DNA of 64,000 nt from a virus. A program made the translations under genes and the position numbers. Below the pieces are notes generated by a model. It was not told where the DNA came from and ran no database searches. It saw only the letters and a program-made list of their open reading frames with translations. Location of the stretch: positions 2,764-66,763 of the IMG/VR virus record IMGVR_UViG_3300030031_000041. One strand, written 5' to 3'. Positions 401 to 54,172 of the stretch are shown one piece after another (within the stretch, counting starts at the first letter, position 1; each line of letters begins with the position of its first letter).

Positions 401-802
401 ATGATCGGGACGTTAGAAGAAGTCATGAAGGATATGAAATATGGCGTACTTGATTTCACAAAGGACGGTAAATGCAGTGGTTGTGGACAATGTTGTAGCA
501 ACTACTTGCCAATATCCAGTAAAGAAATTAAAGAAATTAAACGTTACGTAAAGAAGCATCATATCACTGAACAGAAGCATAATTATCCTTCAGTTGTGGC
601 ATTTGACCTTACTTGCCCGTTCCTGGATGATTCCAAGTCAAAAGAAAAATGTCTTATATATCAAGTGAGACCTGAGATATGCAGAGATTTTGTCTGCAAC
701 AATCCGAACGGGGCAATCAAAAACAAGAAACTTATGCATAAGAAGTACGCAGCAGTAGATATGCGAGAAATATTTTTTGGAGGCAACGGGAATGAACAAT
801 AA
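401..802 (+). CDS. YkgJ/UPF0153-like Cys-cluster protein
   Basis: CSGCGQCC (CxxCxxCC) motif near N-terminus plus second Cys pair; RBS GAGGTG upstream. Confidence 0.5.
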   Translation: MIGTLEEVMKDMKYGVLDFTKDGKCSGCGQCCSNYLPISSKEIKEIKRYVKKHHITEQKHNYPSVVAFDLTCPFLDDSKSKEKCLIYQVRPEICRDFVCNNPNGAIKNKKLMHKKYAAVDMREIFFGGNGNEQ

Positions 803-1394
803 AGAAATTTTACAGAAAGCAAAGGAACTGGTTGAACTTCTGGAAAAACAGGAAGAAGCTGACAAAGTTGTGCTGTCAACACTGAAACGAGGAGATGTGT
901 TTCAGACCACTGGAAAGCGTAAATACAAGGTTCTGGAACAGTATGGAGATACAACGAAAATTATTTCGCTTGATCTGGTGAAAGAAAAGGTAGAGTTTGG
1001 TGATACCTTAGATTACAAAACATCAAAGGTAAAGAAACTGTGTGACACTGAAATCCTGAAAGACTTCGAAGAAGAATTCGGGGCAGGAAATATCGAGACA
1101 CACACAGCAGATATTATCACTGCGGATGGACAGAAATTGTGGACTGTTGATTGTAAAATTCGACCGATTACGTTTGATGAAGCACGAGAATACACAGATA
1201 TTACACCGAACAATGATCTGAACGACTGGTATTGGACGTTGTCGCCATGGTCGACAGAAGAGCGCGGTTGGAGTAGAAACTTAGCCGTTGTTTCCCCTTC
1301 GGGCTGTATCGGCGGCCGCCGTTGCGTCGGGGGTGGTGTTCGCCCAGTTTGTATCTTAAAATCTAATATCTTTGTATCTAAGGTGGAGGAATGA
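792..1394 (+). CDS. DGR variable (target) protein 1, C-terminal CLec-like variable region
   Basis: VR1 at C-terminus; W-rich motif DWYWTLSPWST before VR, ends ...VVSPSG..GVRPV; RBS GGAGG 8 nt before ATG 792. Confidence 0.75.
   Translation: MNNKEILQKAKELVELLEKQEEADKVVLSTLKRGDVFQTTGKRKYKVLEQYGDTTKIISLDLVKEKVEFGDTLDYKTSKVKKLCDTEILKDFEEEFGAGNIETHTADIITADGQKLWTVDCKIRPITFDEAREYTDITPNNDLNDWYWTLSPWSTEERGWSRNLAVVSPSGCIGGRRCVGGGVRPVCILKSNIFVSKVEE
1286..1345 (+). repeat. DGR variable repeat VR1 (plus IMH-like GTTTGTATCTT to ~1357)
   Basis: aligns to TR 2393-2457; 14 substitutions all at TR adenines plus one AAC codon deletion. Confidence 0.8.
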
Positions 1395-1996
1395 TTGTGA
1401 AGAAAAATCTGAAATATTTTGAGGATGAATTATCCAGATTAAGTAAAGAGTTCACAGAATTCAAGAAAAAGCACATCGGAAAGCCGGAAATCGGAAAAGC
1501 TATTAAGCTTGCTGGCATGGAATGGCTGATTCTGGATAATACAGAAAAAGGATATTTTGCCATTTTGAATGGATTTGATGGAAAAGAAAGAACATTTGAT
1601 TCAGATTCAAATAACTGGATTTCAAGTAAACTGAGAAATGAGTTAAACACTCGTTTTCTTAAAAAAATTACGGACGAGCTTGGAGAAGATGCAGTTATTG
1701 AGCTTGATCGAGATTTGCTTTCTCTGGACGGTCAGACAGAATACGGACATTGTAAAGATAGGATTTCACTTTTGACTGTGGATGAGTACCGGAAATATCG
1801 TAAATTGCTGCCGAACATGTCGAAATGGTGGTGGTTGATTACGCCATGGAGTACACCAGTAAATGATTACAGTACAACAATTACCGTTGTTTCCCCTTCG
1901 GGCTATATCTTCTTCATCCATTGCTACAACGTTCTTGGTGTTCGCCCGGTTTGTATCTTTTCTTCTTCAATCTTTGAAACAGGAAATGATGATTGA
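1391..1996 (+). CDS. DGR variable (target) protein 2, paralog of target 1
   Basis: VR2 at C-terminus; KWWWLITPWST motif; start overlaps stop of target 1. Confidence 0.75.
   Translation: MIVKKNLKYFEDELSRLSKEFTEFKKKHIGKPEIGKAIKLAGMEWLILDNTEKGYFAILNGFDGKERTFDSDSNNWISSKLRNELNTRFLKKITDELGEDAVIELDRDLLSLDGQTEYGHCKDRISLLTVDEYRKYRKLLPNMSKWWWLITPWSTPVNDYSTTITVVSPSGYIFFIHCYNVLGVRPVCIFSSSIFETGNDD
1883..1947 (+). repeat. DGR variable repeat VR2 (plus IMH-like GTTTGTATCTT to ~1959)
   Basis: 65-nt alignment to TR with 10 mismatches, all at 10 of the 18 TR adenines, no non-A differences. Confidence 0.85.
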
Positions 1997-2367
1997 TGGC
2001 GAATGAAGATTTAAAGGTAATAACAAAGGCCAAGCAACTTGCAAAGCATACATTAATAGTTACGAGTAATGCCAGACGATACCCGAAAAAATACAGGTTT
2101 TCACTTGTAGATAAAATGCAAAATAAAGCATTGGAAATTTATGAGTTACTATTTGAAGCCAACCGAACTGATCTGAAAGATTATAAAAGAGAACGATTAG
2201 AACTTCAAACAAAAGCCATTACTTATTGTGATGAGTTGATGTACTTTATAGAACTTTCATATGAATTAGGAATTATCAATTCCGGTGGAATGGAAGCATG
2301 GTCGCAAATGGTAAAAGATATAAAGTACATGACTATTTCATGGAGAACAAAAGACAGAAAAAGATAA
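1993..2367 (+). CDS. avd: accessory variability determinant (Avd)-like protein
   Basis: 124 aa basic helical ORF located between targets and TR/RT, the canonical Avd position. Confidence 0.6.
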   Translation: MMANEDLKVITKAKQLAKHTLIVTSNARRYPKKYRFSLVDKMQNKALEIYELLFEANRTDLKDYKRERLELQTKAITYCDELMYFIELSYELGIINSGGMEAWSQMVKDIKYMTISWRTKDRKR

Positions 2368-2392
2368 TTTTCACAGGTTATGCACTGCGAAT

Positions 2393-2457
2393 ACCGTTGT
2401 TTCCCCTTCGGGCTATATCAACAACAACCATTGCAACAACGAAAATGGTGTTCGCCC
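2393..2457 (+). repeat. DGR template repeat (TR), intergenic, AAC-rich
   Basis: intergenic copy of VRs with A at every variable position (AACAACAAC..AACAAC GAAAAT); 3-prime flank differs from VR flank (IMH* vs IMH). Confidence 0.85.
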
Positions 2458-2562
2458 AACATGGATCACATGCAGACAGAGTAAGCGTAAAGCTGAAATC
2501 AGAAAAGATACAAGCAAATGCATAACCTTTCCGCAATGGACAAACATAAAGGAACAAAATAA

Positions 2563-3582
2563 ATGGATAAAGAAATTGTTGCAAATTTTGAGAATTTATA
2601 TCGTTCTTACAAAAAGGTTAAGAGCGGTAAAAAATTTAATTCAGGTACTGCAAGATTTTCTAATTTGTCTCTTGAAGGCATTCATCTCTTGAAGGAACAA
2701 TTAGAAAGTCAAACGTATACCATAAATCCGTATAATAAATTTCAAATTCATGAGCCAAAAGAGCGAACGATAGAATCATGTGCATTTAAGGACAAAGTAG
2801 TGCAGAGATGCTTTTCTGATTACATTTTGACACCAAAACTTGAAAATATCCTGATTAAATGGAACACTGCCGGGCAGCAAGGAAAAGGGCAACACATGGC
2901 AATGGACGGGTTAAAAAATCAAATGTTGGATTTCTATAAAAGAAATGGAATGAATAGTTGGATTGTAAAATGTGATATTCACAAATACTTTTATTGCATA
3001 GACCATGAAATCATGAAAGATGTTTTGGATTATTACTTTGATGATGATTTTACAGTCTGGTTAAACCATTTGTTTATTGACAGTACAGGTAATCCCGGGC
3101 TTCCATTAGGAAATCAGGTAAATCAGAAGTACGCATTGTTGCTTTTACATTCACTGGATCAGATGATAACGATTGAATTTGGAAATCCATATTACGGACG
3201 ATACAACGATGATTTTTATGTGATTTGTAAAACGAAAGAAGATGCCAGAGAAATTCTTGAGGCAATCCGAAAGATGGTTGAAAGCCTTGGACTGGAACTA
3301 AACCCTAAATCACAAATTGTACCATTTCGCATGGGCTTGTGTTATCTGGGCTTTCATCATTACGTGACTGATGAAGGAAAATATATCAGAAAATTGCGTG
3401 GTGATAAGAAACGAAAAACACAGAGAAAAATCCGAAGATGGGTACGGGCAGTAAATGACAGGAAGATGTTGATAGAAAAATTTCATGAAAAATACGGAGC
3501 ATGCAAGAATCATATGCTTCATGGAAATTGCACCAAACTATGCCATAGTATGGATTTGGATATTGAAAGGAGAATGAAGTGA
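2563..3582 (+). CDS. DGR reverse transcriptase
   Basis: RT motifs: LPLGNQVNQ (DGR-type [I/L]GxxxSQ-like motif 4), YNDDF catalytic box (YxDD), 339 aa. Confidence 0.85.
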   Translation: MDKEIVANFENLYRSYKKVKSGKKFNSGTARFSNLSLEGIHLLKEQLESQTYTINPYNKFQIHEPKERTIESCAFKDKVVQRCFSDYILTPKLENILIKWNTAGQQGKGQHMAMDGLKNQMLDFYKRNGMNSWIVKCDIHKYFYCIDHEIMKDVLDYYFDDDFTVWLNHLFIDSTGNPGLPLGNQVNQKYALLLLHSLDQMITIEFGNPYYGRYNDDFYVICKTKEDAREILEAIRKMVESLGLELNPKSQIVPFRMGLCYLGFHHYVTDEGKYIRKLRGDKKRKTQRKIRRWVRAVNDRKMLIEKFHEKYGACKNHMLHGNCTKLCHSMDLDIERRMK

Positions 3583-4163: not shown

Positions 4164-4925
4164 TTGTTCATGCGAGTAATTTCAACAGGTAGTACCAAAG
4201 GAAATTGTTACGCTTTGCAGTCAAGTGCAGACGAGATTGTTCTTCTTGACTGCGGATGCAACTACAAGAAAATCCTCAGAGGGATTGACTACCAGATAAG
4301 CAATGTTTCTGGCGTACTTCTCTCCCATGAACACGGAGATCACACTGGCAATCACAACAAAACTGTTCGTGAAATCATGAACGCTGGAATCACGGTCTAT
4401 ACCGGAGCAGAAACAATCAAAAATTTAGGCATAACGGACGGAACTATAAAAGCTGTTGCTAAAAAGAAATACTTCAAAATCGACTCGTTCAGCGCAGTTC
4501 CGTTCAGCCTGCCACATACATCTGCAAATAAAGAGCCGTGCCCGAACTTCGGGTATCTAGTGGAACATGAGGAAATGGGAAAGCTTCTTTACCTGACAGA
4601 CTTTGAGCATTGCCGGTACAAATTCAAATCAATGGAACTTAATCATTTGGTTATTGGTTGTAATTACTGCGAGGAGCTGATAGACAGAAACAACTCGAAG
4701 TGGGAGCACCAGATCACTGGGCATTGCTCTTTATCAACTTGCAAGCAATTCGTTAAGCAGAATCGCACAGAATCGCTTCGGACAGTAACACTTGTACATT
4801 TAAGTGGGGATTCATCTGATGCCCGTAAAATACAGCGAGAAATACAAGAAGTTACAGGAAACAATGTTCTGGTTCAGATTGGACGGGCTGGACTGGAAGT
4901 TGACTTGAATTTATGCCCGTTCTGA
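4164..4925 (+). CDS. MBL-fold metallo-hydrolase
   Basis: LSHEHGDHTGN (HxHxDH) motif. Confidence 0.65.
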   Translation: MFMRVISTGSTKGNCYALQSSADEIVLLDCGCNYKKILRGIDYQISNVSGVLLSHEHGDHTGNHNKTVREIMNAGITVYTGAETIKNLGITDGTIKAVAKKKYFKIDSFSAVPFSLPHTSANKEPCPNFGYLVEHEEMGKLLYLTDFEHCRYKFKSMELNHLVIGCNYCEELIDRNNSKWEHQITGHCSLSTCKQFVKQNRTESLRTVTLVHLSGDSSDARKIQREIQEVTGNNVLVQIGRAGLEVDLNLCPF

Positions 4926-4936
4926 AAGGAGATAGG

Positions 4937-5161
4937 ATGATAAATTTAAAAAATTGGAAAGAGGTTACGAAAGGGCTTTACAGATATGTTGTTTCATCAA
5001 ATGTTGCATACGAAATTCACGTCAAATATTGGGACATGGACACAGACATTTTAAGTGCGAATGCAAGTCTGTACATTGTTGGTGATTGGCGTTCGAGAGA
5101 TGGAAAAACACAAGAGAAAGAGAGCGCTTACTTGAATCTGCGCCTGTCATGGCTTGCTTAG
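4937..5161 (+). CDS. hypothetical protein
   Basis: ATG 4937 preceded by AGGAGATAGG; ORF track 4913..5161. Confidence 0.4.
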   Translation: MINLKNWKEVTKGLYRYVVSSNVAYEIHVKYWDMDTDILSANASLYIVGDWRSRDGKTQEKESAYLNLRLSWLA

Positions 5162-5321
5162 CCAAAGCAGAAGAAGATAATATTGAAAATAATGTCGAAT
5201 CTTAGAGGAGATAAGCCATGAACGAATTAACTGATTGTAGCAAATGTAGATTCCGTAATTGCTGTACGTTAGCATGGGATTACGGCTCGCTTTACTGTAA
5301 CGATTATGAGGAGGAAGATAC

Positions 5322-8320: not shown

Positions 8321-8668
8321 ATGGAGAAATTAAAACCTTGTCCGTTTTGTGGAGGAAAAGCAATAACCGAATGTTGGGCTAGTGGAGGCATTATGTACAT
8401 GGTTAAGTGCGGTAATCCAGATTGCGTTGTACCAGCGGAAGGTTATCCTTCTGGAAGAAATTTGACAGCTGTAAGAGAACAGTGGAATAGGAGGGTAAAA
8501 AAAATGAGCTACTGTGGCGGAACCTGTAAGTATCTGAATACAAGAAAACACAAATGCGAATTGACAGGAGAAAAACTCACATACATGACAAACAGTTGTG
8601 GAATCGAGTATTCAGTGCATGAGCACAGAGGATTCTGTGAGAAAGACAAGGAGGACGCAAAATGCTAA
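8321..8668 (+). CDS. Lar-family restriction-alleviation-like Zn-ribbon protein
   Basis: N-terminal KLKPCPFCGG motif and WNRR motif characteristic of Lar family. Confidence 0.5.
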   Translation: MEKLKPCPFCGGKAITECWASGGIMYMVKCGNPDCVVPAEGYPSGRNLTAVREQWNRRVKKMSYCGGTCKYLNTRKHKCELTGEKLTYMTNSCGIEYSVHEHRGFCEKDKEDAKC

Positions 8669-15079: not shown

Positions 15080-15097
15080 ACATGATATGTGCGGCAC
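15080..15097 (+). repeat. inverted repeat arm L (ACATGATATGTGCGGCAC) upstream of recombinase
   Basis: 17/18 match to reverse complement of 16533..16550. Confidence 0.6.
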
Positions 15098-15122
15098 ATT
15101 TCTACACAAAGGAGGAATAGTC

Positions 15123-16487
15123 ATGGAATGTGTTGCGTATTTGCGTGTATCAACAGAAAAACAGGCCGAAGAGGGAAATGGATTAGACAGTCAGAAAAGA
15201 GATATTGAAAATTATTGTAGAAAAAATCAATTGATTATATCTGATTGGTACGAGGATGACGGCTTCACAGGTTCGAATATGAATCGTCCAGCATTGCAAC
15301 GCTTAATTAATGATTGCTCAAAGAAAAAATTAAAATGTGTTGTAGCGTTTAAACTAGATCGATTATCAAGAAGCATGGTCGATGGAATATACTTAATTGA
15401 ACGTGTATTCATACCTAATGGGGTGGATTTTAGATGCGTGCATGATAGTGTAAGCTACGACAGCCCAATGGAGCAAGCATACACTCAGATGATGGCAGTG
15501 TTTGCGCAACTTGACAAAAATACTATGTTGCTTAGAATGCGTGGCGGTATGCTGGAGCGAGTGAAACAGGGATATTGGATGGGAGGTGGCAACACTCCTT
15601 ATTGCTATAGATATAGCAAAGAAGACGGAATCTTAGTTCCCATACCAGAACGCAAAGAAATGGCTTTGCGAGCTATGAATTTGTATATATCCGGTTATTC
15701 TGATGTTCGAATACATAAATTGATAGGATTTAAAAGCGAGTTTGTTACACGACAGGTTCTTACCAGTCCTGTAAATATTGGCATGATTCCGTATAAAGGG
15801 AAACTATATAAGGGAAGACATGAACCAATTTTCGATATTAAAGTATTTGAATTAGCCCAGGAATTAAGAAAAACTCGTAAGCAAAGTAAAAGCTTCTGTG
15901 TTAATCACGAGAATCAGCTCTTGACGGGGCTGTGCTATTGCGGAGTGTGCGGGTGCAAGATGAGATATCAGAAATGGACTCATGGAAAGCATAAAATTTA
16001 TTGCTATTCAAGGGATAACGGCATGTCGTACTTACCAAATTATAATCCGAATTGCAACAATTCGCTTGAGTGGGCAGAAGATATTGAAAAGCAGGTTGAA
16101 GATGAGATTTTAAAGATTTCCCTCAATTTATCATCGCATAAGCCAAAAGAAAGAGAAAGCTGTCTGGACATTTTGAGTAAACAACTCCAAAAAGAAAAAA
16201 CGAAGCTAAAACGTCTATATACTCTTTATGCTGAGGGAAATGATACGGTTTTGGAGATGATAAAAGAAACGGAATCCGGTATAGATGAATTAAAACTAAA
16301 AATACAGAACGAGATGAAGAGCCCGGATAACTCACAGAAGAAAGAATTTGTATACGATAATATAAAAAAGCTTGCCGATGTGTGGGAACACATTGACAAG
16401 CAAAACAAAAACCGTATATTAAAAACTATAATATCAAAAATAATTATAGTCAATGGAAATATTGAAATACAGTTGAAGAAATTTTAG
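15123..16487 (+). CDS. large serine recombinase (integrase-type)
   Basis: VAYLRVSTEKQ..GLDSQ catalytic N-terminus, recombinase and Zn-ribbon/coiled-coil C-terminal region; RBS GGAGG. Confidence 0.8.
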   Translation: MECVAYLRVSTEKQAEEGNGLDSQKRDIENYCRKNQLIISDWYEDDGFTGSNMNRPALQRLINDCSKKKLKCVVAFKLDRLSRSMVDGIYLIERVFIPNGVDFRCVHDSVSYDSPMEQAYTQMMAVFAQLDKNTMLLRMRGGMLERVKQGYWMGGGNTPYCYRYSKEDGILVPIPERKEMALRAMNLYISGYSDVRIHKLIGFKSEFVTRQVLTSPVNIGMIPYKGKLYKGRHEPIFDIKVFELAQELRKTRKQSKSFCVNHENQLLTGLCYCGVCGCKMRYQKWTHGKHKIYCYSRDNGMSYLPNYNPNCNNSLEWAEDIEKQVEDEILKISLNLSSHKPKERESCLDILSKQLQKEKTKLKRLYTLYAEGNDTVLEMIKETESGIDELKLKIQNEMKSPDNSQKKEFVYDNIKKLADVWEHIDKQNKNRILKTIISKIIIVNGNIEIQLKKF

Positions 16488-16532
16488 CACAAACTATATG
16501 CCATAGGAACTGCATTATGTAAGTGCTAATAA

Positions 16533-16550
16533 GTGCCGCACGTATCATGT
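16533..16550 (-). repeat. inverted repeat arm R (GTGCCGCACGTATCATGT)
   Basis: reverse complement matches 15080..15097 at 17/18. Confidence 0.6.
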
Positions 16551-16573
16551 CAATAAATAACAGGAGGGTAACG

Positions 16574-17251
16574 ATGATCTCACAGGGAATCAGCCATACT
16601 GCATACGATACCATGAAAGAATATATGCTCACAGGAGCCGAACTGGACGGCAAATACCAAATTCCAATGATGGACAGGTATGTGGACGAAATACCACAAG
16701 ACACAGTGGATTTTAAAGACAGTTTCAGCCGAAAGATAAAGAATCATCGAGAATTAAGCATCAACTTTTATATCCATGACTGCGAATTTGAAAAGCTATG
16801 GAATAATCCAGATAGATACCTGGAACACTTGAAATGTTTCAAGAGCGTGATCGCACCAGACTTTTCAATGGCAGTCGGTGAAAATGGTATGCCATTTGCT
16901 ATGAATATCTGGAACAAATACAGAAATCATGCCATGGCTCATTATCTCAGTATGAACGAGATAAAGGTGATTCCTAACGTGAGCATACCTCCAGAGTATT
17001 GCTATGACTGGGCTTTTGATGGTGTGCCAAAAAGAAGCACCGTAGCATGTTGCACCAATGGAAGAATTAAATCCAGAGCATCCAGAGAAGAATTCTGTAT
17101 AGGCTTTAAAGAAATGGAAAGGCGCATAGAGCCGCTCCGAGTTATCGTTGTAGGGAAAATACCACCTGAACTCAATACGGACGTGGAAATCATCAATTTC
17201 AAGACCAGAAGTCAGAAGATCAAGGATAAGGAGGGAAAATATGGGGTATAG
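16574..17251 (+). CDS. hypothetical protein
   Basis: ATG 16574 after AGGAGGG; ORF track 16523..17251. Confidence 0.5.
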   Translation: MISQGISHTAYDTMKEYMLTGAELDGKYQIPMMDRYVDEIPQDTVDFKDSFSRKIKNHRELSINFYIHDCEFEKLWNNPDRYLEHLKCFKSVIAPDFSMAVGENGMPFAMNIWNKYRNHAMAHYLSMNEIKVIPNVSIPPEYCYDWAFDGVPKRSTVACCTNGRIKSRASREEFCIGFKEMERRIEPLRVIVVGKIPPELNTDVEIINFKTRSQKIKDKEGKYGV

Positions 17252-22935: not shown

Positions 22936-23017
22936 AACGATACCTCCTATAATTATATAATAAACGCAAACGTTTCAAAAATCAATAATAATTCACTTGA
23001 ATGTGAACAATATACTT

Positions 23018-23046
23018 GCAATCACACACGCTAAGGTGTATAATTT
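23018..23046 (+). promoter_or_regulatory. sigma70-like promoter TTGCAA-17-TATAAT
   Basis: upstream of small serine recombinase. Confidence 0.4.
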
Positions 23047-23074
23047 ATTTATAAAGAAACAGGAGCGTGTATAT

Positions 23075-23665
23075 ATGAAGGTAGGATATGTAAGGGTTTC
23101 AACAGTTGACCAGAACGAAGCAAGACAGATTGAAGCCATGAAAGCAGATAGCGTTGAAAAAATATACGTGGACAAACAGTCAGGAAAAGATTTTAATCGT
23201 CCGCAATACCAGCAAATGATTTCGGAACTTAGAGAAGGTGACATGCTGGTTCTCCATTCTATCGATCGTCTCGGAAGAAATTATGAAGAGATTCTGGAAC
23301 AATGGAGGATTATTACAAAAGAAATCAAAGCGGACATCATGGTTCAAGATATGCCACTTCTCAATACATCCATATCAAAAAATTTGGATGGTACGTTTGT
23401 AGCAGACTTAGTTCTCCAGATTCTTTCGTATGTATCGCAAAAAGAAAGAGAAAATATCAAACGCCGTCAAGCAGAGGGCATTGCCATTGCTAAGGCTCAG
23501 GGCAAATATAAAGGACGTGCAAAGAAAGAGATTGACAAAAAACTTTTTGAAGATACTAAAGCCAGATGGCAGAATGGTGAGATTACAAAAATTCAATTTG
23601 CTGAAACCATTGGAGTTTCCAGGGGAACATTATACAGAATCTTAGGGGAGGAAAAGGATGATTGA
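23075..23665 (+). CDS. small serine recombinase (resolvase/invertase type)
   Basis: MKVGYVRVSTVDQN..., C-terminal HTH GVSRGTLYRIL; RBS AGGAG. Confidence 0.75.
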   Translation: MKVGYVRVSTVDQNEARQIEAMKADSVEKIYVDKQSGKDFNRPQYQQMISELREGDMLVLHSIDRLGRNYEEILEQWRIITKEIKADIMVQDMPLLNTSISKNLDGTFVADLVLQILSYVSQKERENIKRRQAEGIAIAKAQGKYKGRAKKEIDKKLFEDTKARWQNGEITKIQFAETIGVSRGTLYRILGEEKDD

Positions 23666-25930: not shown

Positions 25931-26002
25931 AGGGCTATCGCCAAGTGGTAAGGCACAGCACTTTGACTGCTGTATTCGCGGGTTCGAATCCCACTAGCCC
26001 AG
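25931..26002 (+). tRNA. tRNA-Gln (anticodon TTG)
   Basis: cloverleaf: acceptor AGGGCTA/TAGCCCA, anticodon loop CTTTGAC, T-loop TTCGAAT; A1:A72 mismatch, one C-A in T stem; no encoded CCA. Confidence 0.65.
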
Positions 26003-26224
26003 CTTGCTAGGTTGCGCATGTACCTGGCAAAGGTTTATTTCACATAGACCCTCCGATACCCATCTAGCTCAACGGAGCTGTCTAAAGGGGCTTCAAACGT
26101 CCCGGATGGGATTCCCGTATAGGTGACAGCAAAACCAAAAAAGGGAGCCTTTGTTGCGACTGGTGGCAAAGAATCGCAACAGTAGAAAATATGGCTTTGA
26201 GGTGCTGGTAATATTTTCTACTCA

Positions 26225-26297
26225 GGAAATTTAGTTCAGTGGTTAGAACGCCCGGCTCATAACCGGCAAGTCCTGAGTTCGAATCTCAGAATTTCCA
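26225..26297 (+). tRNA. tRNA with CAT anticodon (Met or Ile2)
   Basis: acceptor GGAAATT/AATTTCC, D stem GTTC/GAAC, loop CTCATAA, T arm CTGAG-TTCGAAT-CTCAG. Confidence 0.65.
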
Positions 26298-26855
26298 TTT
26301 CTTCCATATGCTGCCCATCCGTTTTATGGGCAGAAAAAACTTTCGGATGAGCGTATGTGAATCAGAATGAGCAAAGATATGTAACGGCATAGGCTTGTGC
26401 TTGATCTGATTTCCCGTCCGATGAATGTTTCTTAGTTTCAATAAGCCATCACAGGTGCACATTGATGACAAGGGAGTTTTCAAGAAACATAAAGTCAAAA
26501 GGCATAATAATATCCGAAACAACTCTGTGTGGCTGACACAGCATAAAACAGTCTAGTGGAAAGCATAACACGATAAACATATTGCTAACCCGGGAATCCG
26601 GGTTATGGGAAAGCGGCAACGATTGGTGGTGTTGCGGCGGTCTGTAAAACCGTTCCCTTGTGGTAAACATTATAGGTTCAATTCCTATCTTTCCCATTGT
26701 TTGGAGACTGAAAGTTTGGTGGTAGGAAAAGCACAGGGCAGTGCGCAGGAATGTATAACCGAGTTCCGAATGCGTACTGTTTATCGGTGATATAGTGACT
26801 TCCTCTAGTAGTCAATAAGTGAACGTGCTGAAATGGTTCTTCCAAACATGTACAT
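26298..26855 (+). ncRNA. candidate large structured ncRNA between tRNAs (ROOL/GOLLD-like location)
   Basis: 558 nt, no credible ORF, many local hairpins; sits between tRNAs. Confidence 0.3.
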
Positions 26856-26927
26856 CGCAGGATAGAGAAGCGGAATCTCGCAAGGTTCATATCCTTGAGA
26901 ACGGCGGTTCAAATCCGTCTCCTGCAA
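26856..26927 (+). tRNA. tRNA with CAT anticodon, C1:A72 mismatch (initiator-like)
   Basis: acceptor CGCAGGA/TCCTGCA, D stem GAGA/TCTC, anticodon stem CAAGG/CCTTG loop TTCATAT, T arm GGCGG-TTCAAAT-CCGTC. Confidence 0.6.
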
Positions 26928-27613
26928 TTTCAAACATGATTAACTCAGTGCAGATAGATTTTCAGTCTAGCTGAGATACAGGGTTATGTAAGATGGAGTA
27001 GTTCGGGATACTGGACTATCAACCATCTTTTTAGCAGAAGTGATTCTGTTAGAGGAGGAAGAAACTTCCAACACACCTTGTAGTGTATCATCATAAAGAG
27101 ACCAAAAGCAGAATCCTTGTGGTCGGCGTACAATAGACGCTTGCTGTGCAAGAATAATCCGTTGATGTGAGTGGTGTGAGAGACCACAGACTAAACGGAA
27201 ATCTCGTTAAGCTGATTTGCCTTGAACCTGAGAAATTAGGGTATAACACAAGAGATTCGTTAAAGTAGCGGTATGGCAATTCATAAAAAAATTTCATGCT
27301 ATAAAAAACATTTTCTGAAAGAACCGTGAAATTTGTGGGTGACACTCCCATGTGTGCTTTGACCGCGGTAAGAAGCTCAGGGTCGCTCCCGAAAGCTCAG
27401 ACTTATCGTCACAGTGGCTGAACATGGTTGCAAGTATGGTGAATAAGGAGAAATCCTAATCGTGGTTGAATATGGTGCATTGCTGTAATGGTATCAGAGT
27501 AGGTTGCTAACCTATCCAACAGAAATGTTGTACACGTTCGAATCGTGTATGCACCGCTCCATCTACCATGAGTAGATAGGAAATCCGACTTTAGCATAGC
27601 TATTGTTGGTTTT
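26928..27613 (+). ncRNA. candidate large structured ncRNA between tRNAs
   Basis: 686 nt noncoding, structured, flanked by tRNAs. Confidence 0.3.
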
Positions 27614-27687
27614 CGGAATGTATCTCAGTTGGGAGAGCGGAGGACGCATAGTCCTTGACGTCGCAAGTTCGAATCTTGCCTTTCCGA
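27614..27687 (+). tRNA. tRNA-like gene with CAT in anticodon loop (atypical G33; possibly degenerate)
   Basis: acceptor CGGAATG/CTTTCCG (one mismatch), T arm GCAAG-TTCGAAT-CTTGC, loop CGCATAG. Confidence 0.4.
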
Positions 27688-27945
27688 TTCCTACGATTGC
27701 CATAGTAGGAATAAATTACTCCTAAAGTATGGTTTGGTTTCCAGTACTCCACGTTGGGTGGCTAGTTGCGGTTCAAGTCCGTGTACTGGAATTTTTGTTT
27801 AAGGATGTGACTTATGGAAGAAAAATGTTGTAAGAATTGCAGAAGACATGATGCTTCACATGGGTTTGTTTCAATGGTGTCAGTGAATATTGTGCAGACT
27901 TTAGATGTCTTGATGATAGTTGTGAATGTTGGGAGGGTGTAAATA

Positions 27946-29498: not shown

Positions 29499-29732
29499 AT
29501 GAGCATCAAATCAGCATTTGAATCTGAGGGAATAGATTTCTCTCAGGTAATGAACTCACCAGAGCCGTGGGACGGACGGGCATTAATAAAGAACATCAAT
29601 GGCAAGTTGTGGTATTGCTGTCCTTTTTGCCAGAAGAAAGCACTTCTGATTAGTCCAGATACAAAAATCCAGCATCTTAAATTGAAGTGCAAGGGTAGTA
29701 ACTGCAAGAAAGAGTTCGAGGTGAATGTATGA
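29499..29732 (+). CDS. Zn-ribbon protein
   Basis: CCPFCQKK...CKGSNCKK. Confidence 0.45.
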   Translation: MSIKSAFESEGIDFSQVMNSPEPWDGRALIKNINGKLWYCCPFCQKKALLISPDTKIQHLKLKCKGSNCKKEFEVNV

Positions 29733-30307
29733 ATACTTGTTATGATTGTGCGTGTTCAAAAATTGAAACAGATGGCAGTCTCAGATTCCTTATTTGTGGA
29801 ATTTATGCAAAGCATTTTCGCGTCCCGTTCTCACTTCCGGTGCCAGATATATGCAATGAATTTCAAAAACGAAGTGGATTTTCTGCATTAGAAGTACTTA
29901 CTCCTGAGGAAAAAGAGAAATGCTTCAAAATATATCGGAAATTGCCTTCGTACAATCCAGAAGTAAGTCCTGAAGAATTTTTCGGAGGTATGGACAGTGG
30001 ATTTTTGGGGATATATCCGAAAAACACTTCGGACATTGTTAAAGCTATTGATTCTATAAAGGTGCCTGATGAAGATGTTATTAAAACAGTTGCCAGCGAT
30101 GCGGAAGAACTTCAAAAGACTAAACCTGTGGAACTGGACGAACTTTCGGAAGAAACCAAGTTTAGAATTTATAAATTAATTGTAAATGAAATTGGAAAGC
30201 ATTTTTACAATTGCGAGATGCGTATGTCATATAAAGACTTTATACTTGTTGAGGATTGCATCAGAAAAGTTTTGCAAGGAGAACAAGATGAACACAAAAC
30301 GGATTAA
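29729..30307 (+). CDS. hypothetical protein
   Basis: ORF track. Confidence 0.45.
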   Translation: MNTCYDCACSKIETDGSLRFLICGIYAKHFRVPFSLPVPDICNEFQKRSGFSALEVLTPEEKEKCFKIYRKLPSYNPEVSPEEFFGGMDSGFLGIYPKNTSDIVKAIDSIKVPDEDVIKTVASDAEELQKTKPVELDELSEETKFRIYKLIVNEIGKHFYNCEMRMSYKDFILVEDCIRKVLQGEQDEHKTD

Positions 30308-30473: not shown

Positions 30474-30794
30474 ATGAGCAAATATTTTGTAGTAAATTTT
30501 CCAATAAAGATTTTTGCTAAAGACAAAAAAGTTGTCGATGCGTTGGCAAATATTGATGTGTACCATGAAAAAGATAAGAGAATTATTTTTGTAGAATTTG
30601 TCACACTTTATACTGTTTTTCCAAAAGAATGTGTTTTTGAAATAGGATATCTTAAAAAGAAATTCAAATTCTTACATGTTGAGCCACACGTATCTGATTC
30701 TGGACTATATAAAATAAAAATTCAATATAAACGAGAAGAAGATATAAAAGAAAAAGATGAGTGGTGGTATTCACTTAGAAGTATTGTGAGGTGA
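30474..30794 (+). CDS. hypothetical protein
   Basis: ORF track. Confidence 0.45.
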   Translation: MSKYFVVNFPIKIFAKDKKVVDALANIDVYHEKDKRIIFVEFVTLYTVFPKECVFEIGYLKKKFKFLHVEPHVSDSGLYKIKIQYKREEDIKEKDEWWYSLRSIVR

Positions 30795-30798
30795 GTAA

Positions 30799-31383
30799 AT
30801 GAAAAAGATACCAACATTATTTGAGCGAGAATTTAAAGACCATAAGGTTGTAAAGGTTCTTCCGAAAGTGCATCCGGGCATGGAATGGGTACTTAAAGGA
30901 GAAGGTGTTGCAACAGTCAAATACGACGGTTCTTGCTGCGCGATAATTGACGGAGAATATTATAAAAGATATGACTGCAAGAAAGACAAAATACCACCAG
31001 AGGGATTTATTCCTTGTTGTGAGCCAGATTCCATTACAGGTCATTGGCCGGGATGGGTAAAGGTTGATGAGAATAATCCGTCTGATAAGTGGTTTGTAAA
31101 AGCGTATAACTTTTCAATGCAATGTAATCTTAGCCCATGGGTGGACGGCACGTATGAAGCTATTGGAAAACATTTTAGTGGAAATCCATATAACTATAAT
31201 TACGATGATCTTGTCCCGCATGGGAGAAATGTTGTAGAAGTCGAACGAACATTTGAAGGAATCAAGAAATATCTTTCCGAACATAGAATAGAGGGATTAG
31301 TTTTCTGGAAAGACGGAAGCCCACAATGTAAAATCAAGCGTTCAGATTTTCGTTTTGAATGGCCAGTAAAGGGGGATTTATGA
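30799..31383 (+). CDS. small nucleotidyltransferase-type RNA ligase-like protein
   Basis: motif I VKYDGS (KxDG), motif IV EGLVFWK, motif V CKIKR. Confidence 0.55.
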   Translation: MKKIPTLFEREFKDHKVVKVLPKVHPGMEWVLKGEGVATVKYDGSCCAIIDGEYYKRYDCKKDKIPPEGFIPCCEPDSITGHWPGWVKVDENNPSDKWFVKAYNFSMQCNLSPWVDGTYEAIGKHFSGNPYNYNYDDLVPHGRNVVEVERTFEGIKKYLSEHRIEGLVFWKDGSPQCKIKRSDFRFEWPVKGDL

Positions 31384-31544
31384 ATCCAGTATTTATATTT
31401 CTAGTGATATGCGGGGCAGTGGCAGTATGGTTCCTGCTTTATAAATTATTTCAACCACTAGGTAAATTATTGAATCACATTGGCAGAAATGCTATTGATG
31501 AGTTAAATAAAGACGAAAGTCAAAACAAGGAGGACAAAGAATGA
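31380..31544 (+). CDS. small membrane protein
   Basis: single TM helix, overlaps neighbours. Confidence 0.4.
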   Translation: MNPVFIFLVICGAVAVWFLLYKLFQPLGKLLNHIGRNAIDELNKDESQNKEDKE

Positions 31545-32494
31545 AGAAAGGACTTTTAGGTGGAATCGGATTAGCTGCTGTAATCGTTGCAGGACTTATA
31601 TGCGTTGCAAAGTGTAGTGTAAGGGTTCCTGCTGGTTACATTGCGGTCGAGTACAAAATGAACGGAGGAATCTCTAAGAATGTACTTACACAGGGATGGC
31701 ATCTAATTTCACCTACAGTAAAAACTTCACTATATTCTGTTGGAATCGAACAGTCTTATCTTACATCTGAAGATAAAGGCGATTCTCCAAAAGACGAAAG
31801 TTTCAAGACACCAACAGCAGATGGCAAATCTCTTTTAGTTGATTTGGAATTTTCGTATAAATTCGATCAGAGCAGGGTAACTGATGTATTTACTCAGTTC
31901 AAAGGTCAATCCGGGGAATCTGTGAAAAATACCTTTATTAAGCCGAAAATGAAAGCATGGACGCAGGAAGTAACTGCGAAGTATCCAGTAACAGATGTTT
32001 TTGGTGATAAGCGCCAGGAACTGAATGAAGCACTTGACGAATATCTTAAACGGAAGTTTGAACCATACGGAATCATTATTGATACAGTAAACTTTACTTC
32101 TATTTCCACTGATGATGAAACACAAGCTGCAATCCAAAAGAAAGTAAATGCACAGCAAGAGCTTGAATTGGCCAATATTGAAGCTAAAACAGCCAAAGTA
32201 CAAGCCGATAAAGATAAAGAAGTTGCACTGATTGCTGCTGAACAGGAAAAAGAAAAAGCAGCTATTCAGGCAGAACAAGCCAAAATTGATGCAGAAGGTA
32301 AAGCTGAAGCGATTAAGATTAAAGCTGAAGCCGAAGCGGAAGCAAACAGAAAGATTGCAGAATCGCTTACCCCTGAACTAATTGAAAAGCAGAAAATTGA
32401 TAAATGGAATGGTGAAGTTCCGAAGATTCAGGGAAGTAACACTTCTACCATCGTAGATACAAGAGATATGACAGCCAATGAGAATGCTGAATAA
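31541..32494 (+). CDS. SPFH/band-7 domain membrane protein with C-terminal coiled coil
   Basis: N-terminal TM, SPFH-like core, long EAKxA coiled-coil repeats. Confidence 0.55.
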   Translation: MKKGLLGGIGLAAVIVAGLICVAKCSVRVPAGYIAVEYKMNGGISKNVLTQGWHLISPTVKTSLYSVGIEQSYLTSEDKGDSPKDESFKTPTADGKSLLVDLEFSYKFDQSRVTDVFTQFKGQSGESVKNTFIKPKMKAWTQEVTAKYPVTDVFGDKRQELNEALDEYLKRKFEPYGIIIDTVNFTSISTDDETQAAIQKKVNAQQELELANIEAKTAKVQADKDKEVALIAAEQEKEKAAIQAEQAKIDAEGKAEAIKIKAEAEAEANRKIAESLTPELIEKQKIDKWNGEVPKIQGSNTSTIVDTRDMTANENAE

Positions 32495-32567: not shown

Positions 32568-34262
32568 ATGCAAAAATTCACAGAAGGTTCGATTGAATGG
32601 TATCGGGCAATTTTAAATCAAATCATTAATGATGATATGACGGTCTATCAAAACCAAAAAGATTGCCTTGATCTGCTGTTAAATATGAATATTGACCTTC
32701 CTTTCAAGGATAATCCAGATGCACGGAACATGGCAATGAAAGTCAGCCGGTACGCTCATACAGTTGCAGCAAGAAACGCGGCACTGACTGGAAGCGGTAA
32801 TTTTGATGATATTTACTGGCAGTATTTACTGTTGGAATCCCCATGGGCGTTCGAGAGTTATTTGTTATACATGGAGAAGAATAGACCGGACAGCAAAAAG
32901 TTCTATATCCCAAGAAAAAAAACACTCCAAGTAGTCGCTCAAGATTTACAGGATTTGGAAGATAGGATAATTGAATTTTACGGTCTATCGTTACCAAGTC
33001 GTGTTGGTAAGAGTACTATGTGCATATTTTTTATGTCGTGGATAATGGGAAGACGACCAAACAGCCACAATGCAATGGGCGGTCACTCTGGAAAACTGGC
33101 CAAGGGTTTCTATGGTGAGCTTCTGAATCTCATAAGCACACAAGAATACACTTACAGTGAGATATTTCCAAAATCAAAATTGCAAAAGCAAAGTGCCGAT
33201 GATTTTGAGATAAATTTGGACAAGCCAGACCGATTCGCCACAATGACTTGCCGCGGTATCGAGGGAACATGGACGGGTGCTGTTGATATTTCGTCTGATG
33301 GATATTTGTATGTGGATGACCTTGTTCGAGACAGGCAGCATTCTTTAAGCCCTACTCGTTTGGAGAATACCTATCAAGAGTATCTGAACAAAATGGTTGA
33401 CCGTAAAATTGATGGGGCAAGAGAGTTGATGGTTGGAACAAGATGGAACCTGTACGACCCATTAGGCAAAATTGAAAAGCTCAATCGAGATAATCCATTG
33501 TATCGGTTCCGTAAGATTCCTGCCTTGAATGACGATGGTGAATCAAACTTTGAATATGATTATGGAGTTGGTTTTTCTACGAAGTATTATGTAGATATGA
33601 AAGCCAGACTTGATGCTAACGAATGGGAGGCTAAATATCAACAGAAACCATTCTTGCGTGAAGGAATCATGTTCGCAGAAGATGAACTAAGATATTACAA
33701 TGGAATTCTTCCAGAGGGCGGATTTGTAAAGAACGTATCTGCTTGTGACGTTGCGTGGGGCGGTGGTGATAGTTTGTCCATGCCGGTTGGTGCGGAATTT
33801 GAAAACGGAGATGTATACATTTATGACTGGATTTTTAATACAGGTCCGAAGGAAGTCACACTTCCACTGGTTGTCGGAAGAATTATGGGAAATGAGATCC
33901 AATCTATCAATTTCGAAGCTAACAATGGTGGCGATATGTATGCTTATTATGTCAGCGGAAGACTAAAAGAACATGGATATGCTTGCAGCACTACCAGCAC
34001 AAAAGCTCCATCAAAGCAAGCTAAAAAAGAAAAAATCAATCAGTACTCTGGAGATGTTAAAAGAAGATTCATATTTCTAGCACCTAAATACCAAAACAAG
34101 GAATATTCAAAAGCAATGGAACAGTTGACCACTTTTGTGTATATTGGCGACAACGATCACGACGATGCACCAGATGGTGTTACACAACTTATGATAACTC
34201 TGACTCAAAAACGATTTGCAGAAGTTACAGCAACTAAGAATTTTATGTGGGGAAGGAGATAG
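32568..34262 (+). CDS. terL: terminase large subunit
   Basis: 564 aa; P-loop-like GLSLPSRVGKST; position before portal. Confidence 0.75.
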   Translation: MQKFTEGSIEWYRAILNQIINDDMTVYQNQKDCLDLLLNMNIDLPFKDNPDARNMAMKVSRYAHTVAARNAALTGSGNFDDIYWQYLLLESPWAFESYLLYMEKNRPDSKKFYIPRKKTLQVVAQDLQDLEDRIIEFYGLSLPSRVGKSTMCIFFMSWIMGRRPNSHNAMGGHSGKLAKGFYGELLNLISTQEYTYSEIFPKSKLQKQSADDFEINLDKPDRFATMTCRGIEGTWTGAVDISSDGYLYVDDLVRDRQHSLSPTRLENTYQEYLNKMVDRKIDGARELMVGTRWNLYDPLGKIEKLNRDNPLYRFRKIPALNDDGESNFEYDYGVGFSTKYYVDMKARLDANEWEAKYQQKPFLREGIMFAEDELRYYNGILPEGGFVKNVSACDVAWGGGDSLSMPVGAEFENGDVYIYDWIFNTGPKEVTLPLVVGRIMGNEIQSINFEANNGGDMYAYYVSGRLKEHGYACSTTSTKAPSKQAKKEKINQYSGDVKRRFIFLAPKYQNKEYSKAMEQLTTFVYIGDNDHDDAPDGVTQLMITLTQKRFAEVTATKNFMWGRR

Positions 34263-54039: not shown

Positions 54040-54172
54040 TTTTGGTAAAACCAGTAGGCTAGGGTAGCTCCCGAAAAGTGTAATTCCATGATACACCTGC
54101 CTACTGTTTTTATAAATCATGGATCTGTGGCTACAAGGCAGTCACGCATTAACGACATGGAGGTTATCTATT

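Follow-up and report, generated by a model that had tools for sequence, protein, structure and literature searches.

What does a phage gain from an RNA ligase of fewer than two hundred residues, encoded without a recognisable partner that would heal RNA ends? This question is raised by an open reading frame (ORF) of 194 amino acids, which begins with ATG and occupies positions 30799..31383 (+) in a 64,000-nucleotide stretch of viral DNA (positions 2,764 to 66,763 of the IMG/VR record IMGVR_UViG_3300030031_000041), called the window below. A preliminary description of this DNA had interpreted the ORF as an RNA-ligase-like nucleotidyltransferase and proposed for it a function in tRNA repair. The ORF was confirmed in the window, and its assignment to RNA ligases was borne out by profile and structure-based comparisons. 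PHROG 14301 (“RNA ligase”) was matched end to end (E 7e-54, residues 1–186 of the 186-position profile), and the Pfam family PF17720 (“RLIG1”) was recognised with 29.1 bits (E 5.9e-7), that is above its curated gathering score of 25, while a search of NCBIfam with the same protein gave zero matches. Among the sequences of the Protein Data Bank (PDB) the only real matches found by phmmer were 9c6l and 9c6m, both representing the 5′-to-3′ RNA ligase RLIG1 (C12orf29) of Yasminevirus (E 2.7e-8). When the query was replaced by a profile of 64 homologs, representing different 50%-identity clusters and being 38–61% identical to the phage protein, the match to 9c6l improved to E 2e-25, with ligase residues 21–191 aligned to 52–267. 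The AlphaFold2 model, built from an alignment of 53 sequences, is confident (mean predicted local distance difference test score, pLDDT, 93.6; predicted template modelling score 0.86) and has zero disordered segments. According to this model the protein adopts the minimal ATP-grasp-like nucleotidyltransferase fold seen in the Yasminevirus enzyme (YspRLIG1), without any additional domain, and all its nearest structural relatives are RNA ligases. The OB-fold domain that follows the nucleotidyltransferase domain in ATP-dependent DNA ligases and is their hallmark was not found in the ligase; the gene encodes the nucleotidyltransferase domain alone, with neither an OB nor an RNA-binding appendage. 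Similarity to ligases thus spans the whole protein and its fold and is not limited to short motifs, and chance is far from accounting for it. The protein securely belongs to RLIG1 (C12orf29), a family of ATP-dependent RNA ligases known from earlier work, and it can be predicted with high confidence from the sequence that its gene encodes an active RLIG1-type enzyme. As read directly from the sequence, a Shine-Dalgarno-like GAGG (30788..30791, +) is located 7 nt 5′ of the ligase ATG, and the preceding ORF (30474–30794) ends with a stop codon (30792–30794) 4 nt ahead of this ATG, which suggests close coupling of the two.

The intact active site speaks for catalysis. Substitutions of K73, D75, R89, E174, H195, E240 and K253 in YspRLIG1 lower both adenylylation and ligation (PMC11494293), and all seven mutation-sensitive residues have counterparts in the phage protein, each of them retained in 63–64 of the 64 homologs. 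Equivalences were taken from HMMER alignments, where SEQRES positions run one ahead of the residue numbers, and the motif coordinates belong to the + strand. Motif I (VKYDGS, residues 40–45, 30916..30933) contains K41 (codon 30919–30921), a predicted AMP-accepting lysine aligned with Ysp K73 and kept in 63/64 homologs, as well as D43, a predicted metal ligand aligned with Ysp D75 and retained in 64/64. Motif Ia is represented by R57 (30967..30969; 63/64), corresponding to R89 of YspRLIG1, which contacts the ribose 3′-OH. Both E120 of motif III (31156..31158) and H141 of motif IIIa (31219..31221), the equivalents of Ysp E174 and H195, are conserved in 64/64 sequences, and the same is true for E165 (Ysp E240), the first residue of motif IV (EGLVFWK, residues 165–171, 31291..31311). 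In motif V (CKIKR, residues 177–181, 31327..31341) K178 corresponds to Ysp K253 (63/64), and residue 180 is K or R in 63/64 homologs. Motifs I, IV and V had been assigned in the preliminary description at the same positions, and they match the residues defined by the YspRLIG1 structure; conservation of the catalytic lysine, checked in diverse homologs, speaks for that assignment and not against it. By analogy with the family, K41 would attack the α-phosphate of ATP to form enzyme-(lysyl-N)-AMP, the AMP would be transferred to the 5′-phosphate of RNA giving AppRNA, and attack of the 3′-OH would then close the break. In this scheme D43, E120, E165 and K178 are expected to hold metal and phosphates, while R57 and H141 would bring the ribose into place.

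The family is large. In an index of 5.8 billion proteins 5,503 homologs were found at E≤1e-3, 1,670 clusters were counted among 50%-identity representatives, and nearly all close homologs have a precomputed PF17720 annotation. The median length of the top 150 homolog representatives is 197.5 amino acids, and no second recognisable domain was found in ten longer homologs, which contain the RLIG1 domain only and provide no informative fusions. As far as the sequences can tell, the ~190-residue form is the usual form of RLIG1 in prokaryotic viruses. An identical ligase protein is encoded on many metagenomic contigs of ~80 kb, and its close relatives reside on gut-virome contigs of 75–88 kb. Megablast of the region against GenBank phages returned only two short unannotated fragments. 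The nearer genomic homologs (up to 69% identity) belong mostly to metagenome-assembled genomes of gut and rumen Clostridia, and in the one case inspected the gene turned out to be part of a prophage. Homologs in Mycobacterium phages (Paola and others), Ralstonia jumbo phages and Cellulophaga phage phi10:1 are already labelled “RNA ligase” in GenBank/RefSeq.

Compared with the enzymes for which RLIG1 was described, the phage protein is reduced. Its 194 residues should be set against 277 in Yasminevirus RLIG1 (9c6l/9c6m) and ~325 in human RLIG1/C12orf29 (324 positions in Pfam PF17720, formerly DUF5565), and relative to YspRLIG1 it is devoid of ~30 N-terminal residues and two internal insertions. 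Identity to these two proteins is only ~21–26%, and in contrast to theirs the activity of the phage ligase is predicted. Its genome is also of another kind, being probably that of a temperate siphophage-like gut virus, not of a giant virus or an animal. Much closer are the stand-alone ligases of ~170–215 residues represented by PHROG 14301, Cellulophaga phage phi10:1 gp057, Mycobacterium phage Paola gp78 and Ralstonia phage RP12 ORF259 (37–43% identity over at least 80% of the length), which are likewise lone ligases with no annotated Pnk nearby, and in phi10:1 the gene is also located ~1 kb upstream of the terminase. They differ from the ligase of the window in lineage and host, and a tRNA/ROOL array a few kilobases upstream is present only in the gut lineage. 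RNA ligase 1 of T4 (gp63, Rnl1), which together with Pnkp repairs tRNA-Lys damaged by PrrC, belongs to a separate family, and the C-terminal tRNA-binding/specificity domain of the Rnl1 family was not found in the phage ligase. The Rnl5-type ligase of Naegleria gruberi (NgrRnl, PDB 5cot) has an N-terminal domain and seals duplex nicks, while human RLIG1 does not seal them. It is known from published biochemistry that human RLIG1 performs ATP-dependent ligation of single-stranded RNA with 5′-phosphate (5′-P) and 3′-OH ends, leaving duplex nicks unsealed (PMC9931718). RLIG1 homologs were reported in some bacteria and viruses, and several of those assayed join halves of tRNA-Lys (PMC11494293). Homologs designated “R. 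bacterium” and “C. phage” were synthesised in the same study (PMC11494293).

Since sealing requires ligatable ends, the next question is whether the phage can produce them. PHROG and Pfam scans of ~60 window ORFs revealed no kinase, HAD, 2H, HD or metallophosphoesterase, with small unannotated ORFs remaining, and screening for sequence motifs typical of P-loop, HAD and metallophosphoesterase proteins picked up only DnaC-like and structural proteins, the sole early-region ORF with an N-terminal P-loop being a DnaC/IstB-type loader. In the ~16 kb of the genome outside the window (from endolysin round to the first window gene) precomputed Pfam annotation contains no healing enzyme. Because neither an extra RNA-binding domain nor a recognisable phage kinase or phosphatase is present, the ligase may be regarded as a “seal-only” enzyme: with no kinase/phosphatase found in the genome it can seal only clean 5′-P/3′-OH breaks, and it would rejoin those which are held together by RNA structure, as in the case of a nick in a tRNA anticodon loop. 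During infection it may reseal host or phage tRNAs, or further structured RNAs, in which host nucleases have made nicks, and metal-dependent tRNases, which leave ligatable ends, would be its likeliest opponents. PIN-domain toxins are expected to leave 5′-P/3′-OH ends. Such ends are also left by Toprim enzymes of OLD/PARIS type, and for the single nick introduced by P2 OLD, resealing by T4 Rnl1 or Rnl2 needs no healing step (PMC12445682). All this makes a sealer that works alone the best description of the ligase, which fits damage by metal-dependent tRNases or healing supplied by the host.

An alternative is that the ligase participates in a T4-like heal-and-seal pathway directed against HEPN-type anticodon nucleases (PrrC/RloC-like), the healing being provided by a host enzyme, by an unrecognised small phage ORF or by the metallo-β-lactamase (MBL)-fold hydrolase encoded at 4164–4925 (+). 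It would agree with the published prediction that viral RLIG1 counters host immunity in the manner of T4 Rnl1 (PMC11494293), and many neighbouring ORFs, which have no family match, leave room for a missing partner. Of 80 prophage loci, 4 have a metallophosphoesterase gene at a distance of no more than 5 kb from the ligase, and one has a gene for a small P-loop protein. On the other side are the negative results of the screens described above, which together cover the ~80 kb genome, the attribution of the only early-region ORF with an N-terminal P-loop to a DnaC/IstB-type loader, and the fact that no conserved partner emerged over the 80 loci. The hydrolase, suggested earlier as a link to RNA repair, is not supported in this role: it is encoded 26 kb away and is dispensable, since its gene is kept in one relative (L100) and is replaced by a different 207-amino-acid ORF in another (L101). 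Its assignment to PHROG 392 (“metal-dependent hydrolase”) apart, the only named structural relatives of this protein are anti-Pycsar Apyc1 cyclic-nucleotide phosphodiesterases, and the likeness is weak (Pfam 18 bits with a cutoff of 50; E 1e-3 over ~50 residues of PDB 7u2r). Judged by these sequence similarities, the hydrolase may act as a cyclic-nucleotide phosphodiesterase against CBASS/Pycsar and not in RNA repair. Taken together, these data make the heal-and-seal alternative improbable compared with sealing alone.

The preliminary description placed the ligase a few kilobases from a tRNA cluster, and this is indeed so. Six tRNA genes (Gln-UUG, Met, Tyr, Met, Ser-GCU and Met, three with the anticodon CAU) were identified by ARAGORN at 25931..27688 on the same strand as the ligase (+), and the array ends 3.1 kb upstream of its ORF; the array is given here as genomic context, and any functional link to the ligase would be conjectural. 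In the ~80 kb lineage the array is always present 2–6 kb upstream of the ligase, with a constant Gln-Met start and variable later members, while a related lineage of ~58 kb usually has a single tRNA-Ser at this position. For a set of 54 diverse prophage loci, whose ligases are 55–69% identical, a tRNA gene was registered within 10 kb in 15 cases (28%, a value given without a baseline for random phage genes); several of these tRNA neighbours lie within 1–2 kb, and tRNA-Gln(UUG) is recurrent among them. This proportion agrees with the enrichment obtained by ProFaNA, where tRNA genes were significantly over-represented around DUF5565, accompanying it at over 20% of 390 bacterial loci (PMC10364804).

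Proximity to tRNA genes also invites another explanation, according to which the physiological product is not the ligated but the 5′-adenylylated (App- or Ap2N-capped) RNA, so that the reaction stops after its second step and marks or protects 5′-monophosphate RNAs, for example processed phage tRNAs. In vitro, human RLIG1 turns 5′-pRNA into Ap2A/Ap2G-RNA, and it accounts for ~20% of the pool in cells, with full-length tRNAs being the main capped species found (PMC13598233); the phage protein shares its active site and there is a tRNA array upstream of its gene. AppRNA is, however, an obligatory intermediate of ligation, the formation of which in vitro is expected of any ligase, and viral and bacterial RLIG1 homologs do complete the ligation of tRNA halves. 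No sign of a defect in the third step was noticed in the sequence, motifs IV and V included. Capping as the main function thus seems even less probable than healing followed by sealing, and sealing remains the preferred reading.

Several features of the array deserve mention irrespective of the ligase. Between tRNA-Met (26855–26928) and tRNA-Ser (27474–27557) it contains a full-length ROOL RNA at 26920–27477 (+) (Rfam RF03087, 384 bits with a gathering score of 99, E 1.6e-89). ROOL is a nanocage-forming RNA of phages and prophages, which has unknown function and is typical of tRNA islands (PMC12286853). A link between ROOL and the ligase was considered and rejected, since iterated nhmmer detected this RNA in only 2 of 183 ligase loci (L015 and L024) and the Rfam search in 0 of 7 diverse tRNA-bearing loci. 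The slot of ROOL in the array of relatives, some of which carry the identical ligase, is occupied by a gene for a ~484-residue DUF2828/DUF7788/VWA_2 protein (L013 5622–7073, L014 6046–7503, L016 5610–7061 and L004 5811–7265), so that one position of the array holds either a large structured RNA or the gene of a vWA protein. The tRNA-Tyr of the window (26606–26697, +) is 92 nt long, with the anticodon at position 39, as against 84–85 nt in most relatives, and Rfam gave for it only a sub-threshold match (33 bits) resembling tRNA-Sec, not a standard tRNA. In several related phages, though not in the window, the array ends with a 72-nt tRNA with the anticodon UCA, called tRNA-SeC by ARAGORN (L041 7749–7820, L043 1001–1072, L044 7296–7367, L048 7701–7772; also L049–L051 and L053). 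Possibly this tRNA suppresses UGA codons, and that would be a hint of stop-codon recoding among some members of the lineage.

Downstream, no other conserved gene separates the ligase from those of the large terminase (32568–34262) and portal. Between them the window has two further genes, of which the first, encoding a 54-residue hydrophobic protein (31380–31544, +), overlaps the ligase stop with its start (ATGA), and the second, encoding an SPFH/Band-7 protein (31541–32494, +), overlaps the preceding stop in the same way. Related phages have at this place either LemA with a 248-residue ORF (L017 10585–11882) or nothing; all these downstream cassettes (hydrophobic/SPFH/LemA) are membrane-associated. 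The position directly before packaging genes, together with weak structural hints, might suggest an enzyme acting on DNA, for example a DNA ligase that closes nicks in replication or recombination, or a non-catalytic morphogenetic role like tail-fibre attachment by T4 gp63, but this is very improbable given that no OB or other DNA-clamping domain is present, duplex nicks are left unsealed by human RLIG1, RNA ligases are the nearest structural relatives, the catalytic residues are strictly conserved, which argues for catalysis, and in other phages the gene is not beside morphogenesis genes.

Upstream of the ligase two window ORFs (30474–30794 and 29729–30307) have no family match; the former was considered as a Tad8 homolog and rejected. 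In relatives, a Pfam Tad8 homolog ends with a stop codon overlapping the ligase start (L004 9720–10004, L017 9720–10004, L019 898–1077), and in L015 a Tad2-like gene (4790–5302) is situated ~5 kb upstream of the ligase, just ahead of the tRNA array, while the corresponding positions of the window are occupied by unrelated ORFs. Thoeris is the defence system counteracted by Tad8, which binds TIR domains or effectors (PMC13243611). Thus the region from the tRNA island to the terminase behaves as a swap-prone accessory, counter-defence-like hot spot, which is an association and not a proof of function.

Based on these data one can assume that the gene probably encodes an ATP-dependent 5′-to-3′ RNA ligase, a trimmed ~190-residue RLIG1, which seals nicked structured RNA as an accessory counter-defence function. 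The narrower proposal that breaks in tRNA or other RNA are repaired in order to counter defence, drawn by analogy, is more tentative and in our estimate falls somewhat short of an even chance; a role in tRNA repair or against anticodon nucleases, as the preliminary description proposed, is plausible and had appeared in print earlier (PMC11494293, PMC10364804). A number of observations weigh against these assumptions. Nearness of tRNA genes in 48 of 60 viral loci comes mostly from two lineages, so that the cases are non-independent; in the phage lineage it reflects shared synteny and is therefore not independent evidence. Some 70% of the diverse loci that carry the ligase are devoid of tRNA genes within 10 kb, and 15 positive loci out of 54 mean that most family members are without a tRNA neighbour. 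The presence of Tad genes nearby is a weak argument for a shared function, and no conserved neighbour of the ligase was found among 561 neighbour proteins from 80 prophage loci, which fell into 451 clusters. Finally, a 5′-kinase/3′-phosphatase of T4 type was not detected in the ~80 kb genome by the screens described above. PrrC leaves 2′,3′-cyclic phosphate and 5′-OH ends, and for this reason the T4 pathway needs Pnkp. With no recognisable healing enzyme of its own, the phage could not repair such damage by its proteins alone, and in this respect its ligase differs from the T4 system.

Other genes of the window characterise the phage as a whole. It encodes a large serine recombinase/integrase (15087–16487) and a separate DNA invertase (22997–23665), and the phage is therefore probably temperate. 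A Lar-like restriction-alleviation protein (8321–8668) and a DUF4417 nuclease-like protein (16523–17251) are also encoded; probably the phage carries further anti-restriction functions. Adjoining the gene of the MBL-fold protein there is a module at 401–3582 (+), which is likely a diversity-generating retroelement. It consists of genes for a CxxCxxCC protein (401–802, +), two paralogous PHROG 9958/Hoc-like products (777–1394 and 1391–1996, +), an Avd-like protein with 23S_rRNA_IVP/bAvd matches (1993–2367, +) and a reverse transcriptase (2563–3582, +; PHROG 1423, E 6e-87). Within the tail-gene region an int-alpA RNA motif (Rfam RF02996) was found at 54052–54122 (+), with 54 bits and a gathering score of 35.8.

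Since both the enzyme assignment and the ideas about tRNA and anti-defence are already in the literature, the gene mainly confirms published predictions. Specific to it are the very small size, the absent healing partner and the anti-defence-like variable region beside a tRNA/ROOL island. One can go further and suppose that the ~190-residue phage clade of RLIG1 is a dedicated “seal-without-heal” counter-defence, composed of the smallest natural polynucleotide ligases, which act without a partner and reverse single tRNA nicks made by metal-dependent defence nucleases, and that in this lineage the ligase forms one RNA-protection module with the adjacent, rapidly swapping tRNA/ROOL island; in this complete form we consider the supposition unlikely. 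If the phage enzyme is active, ~190 residues suffice for a complete RNA ligase, and this form, the commonest one of RLIG1 in metagenomes, would be a useful minimal ligase scaffold. A ligase without a healing partner points to host tRNases leaving ligatable ends as the selective pressure, which is testable with known Toprim or PIN tRNases, and this idea would help in understanding what human RLIG1 does, which is still unclear.
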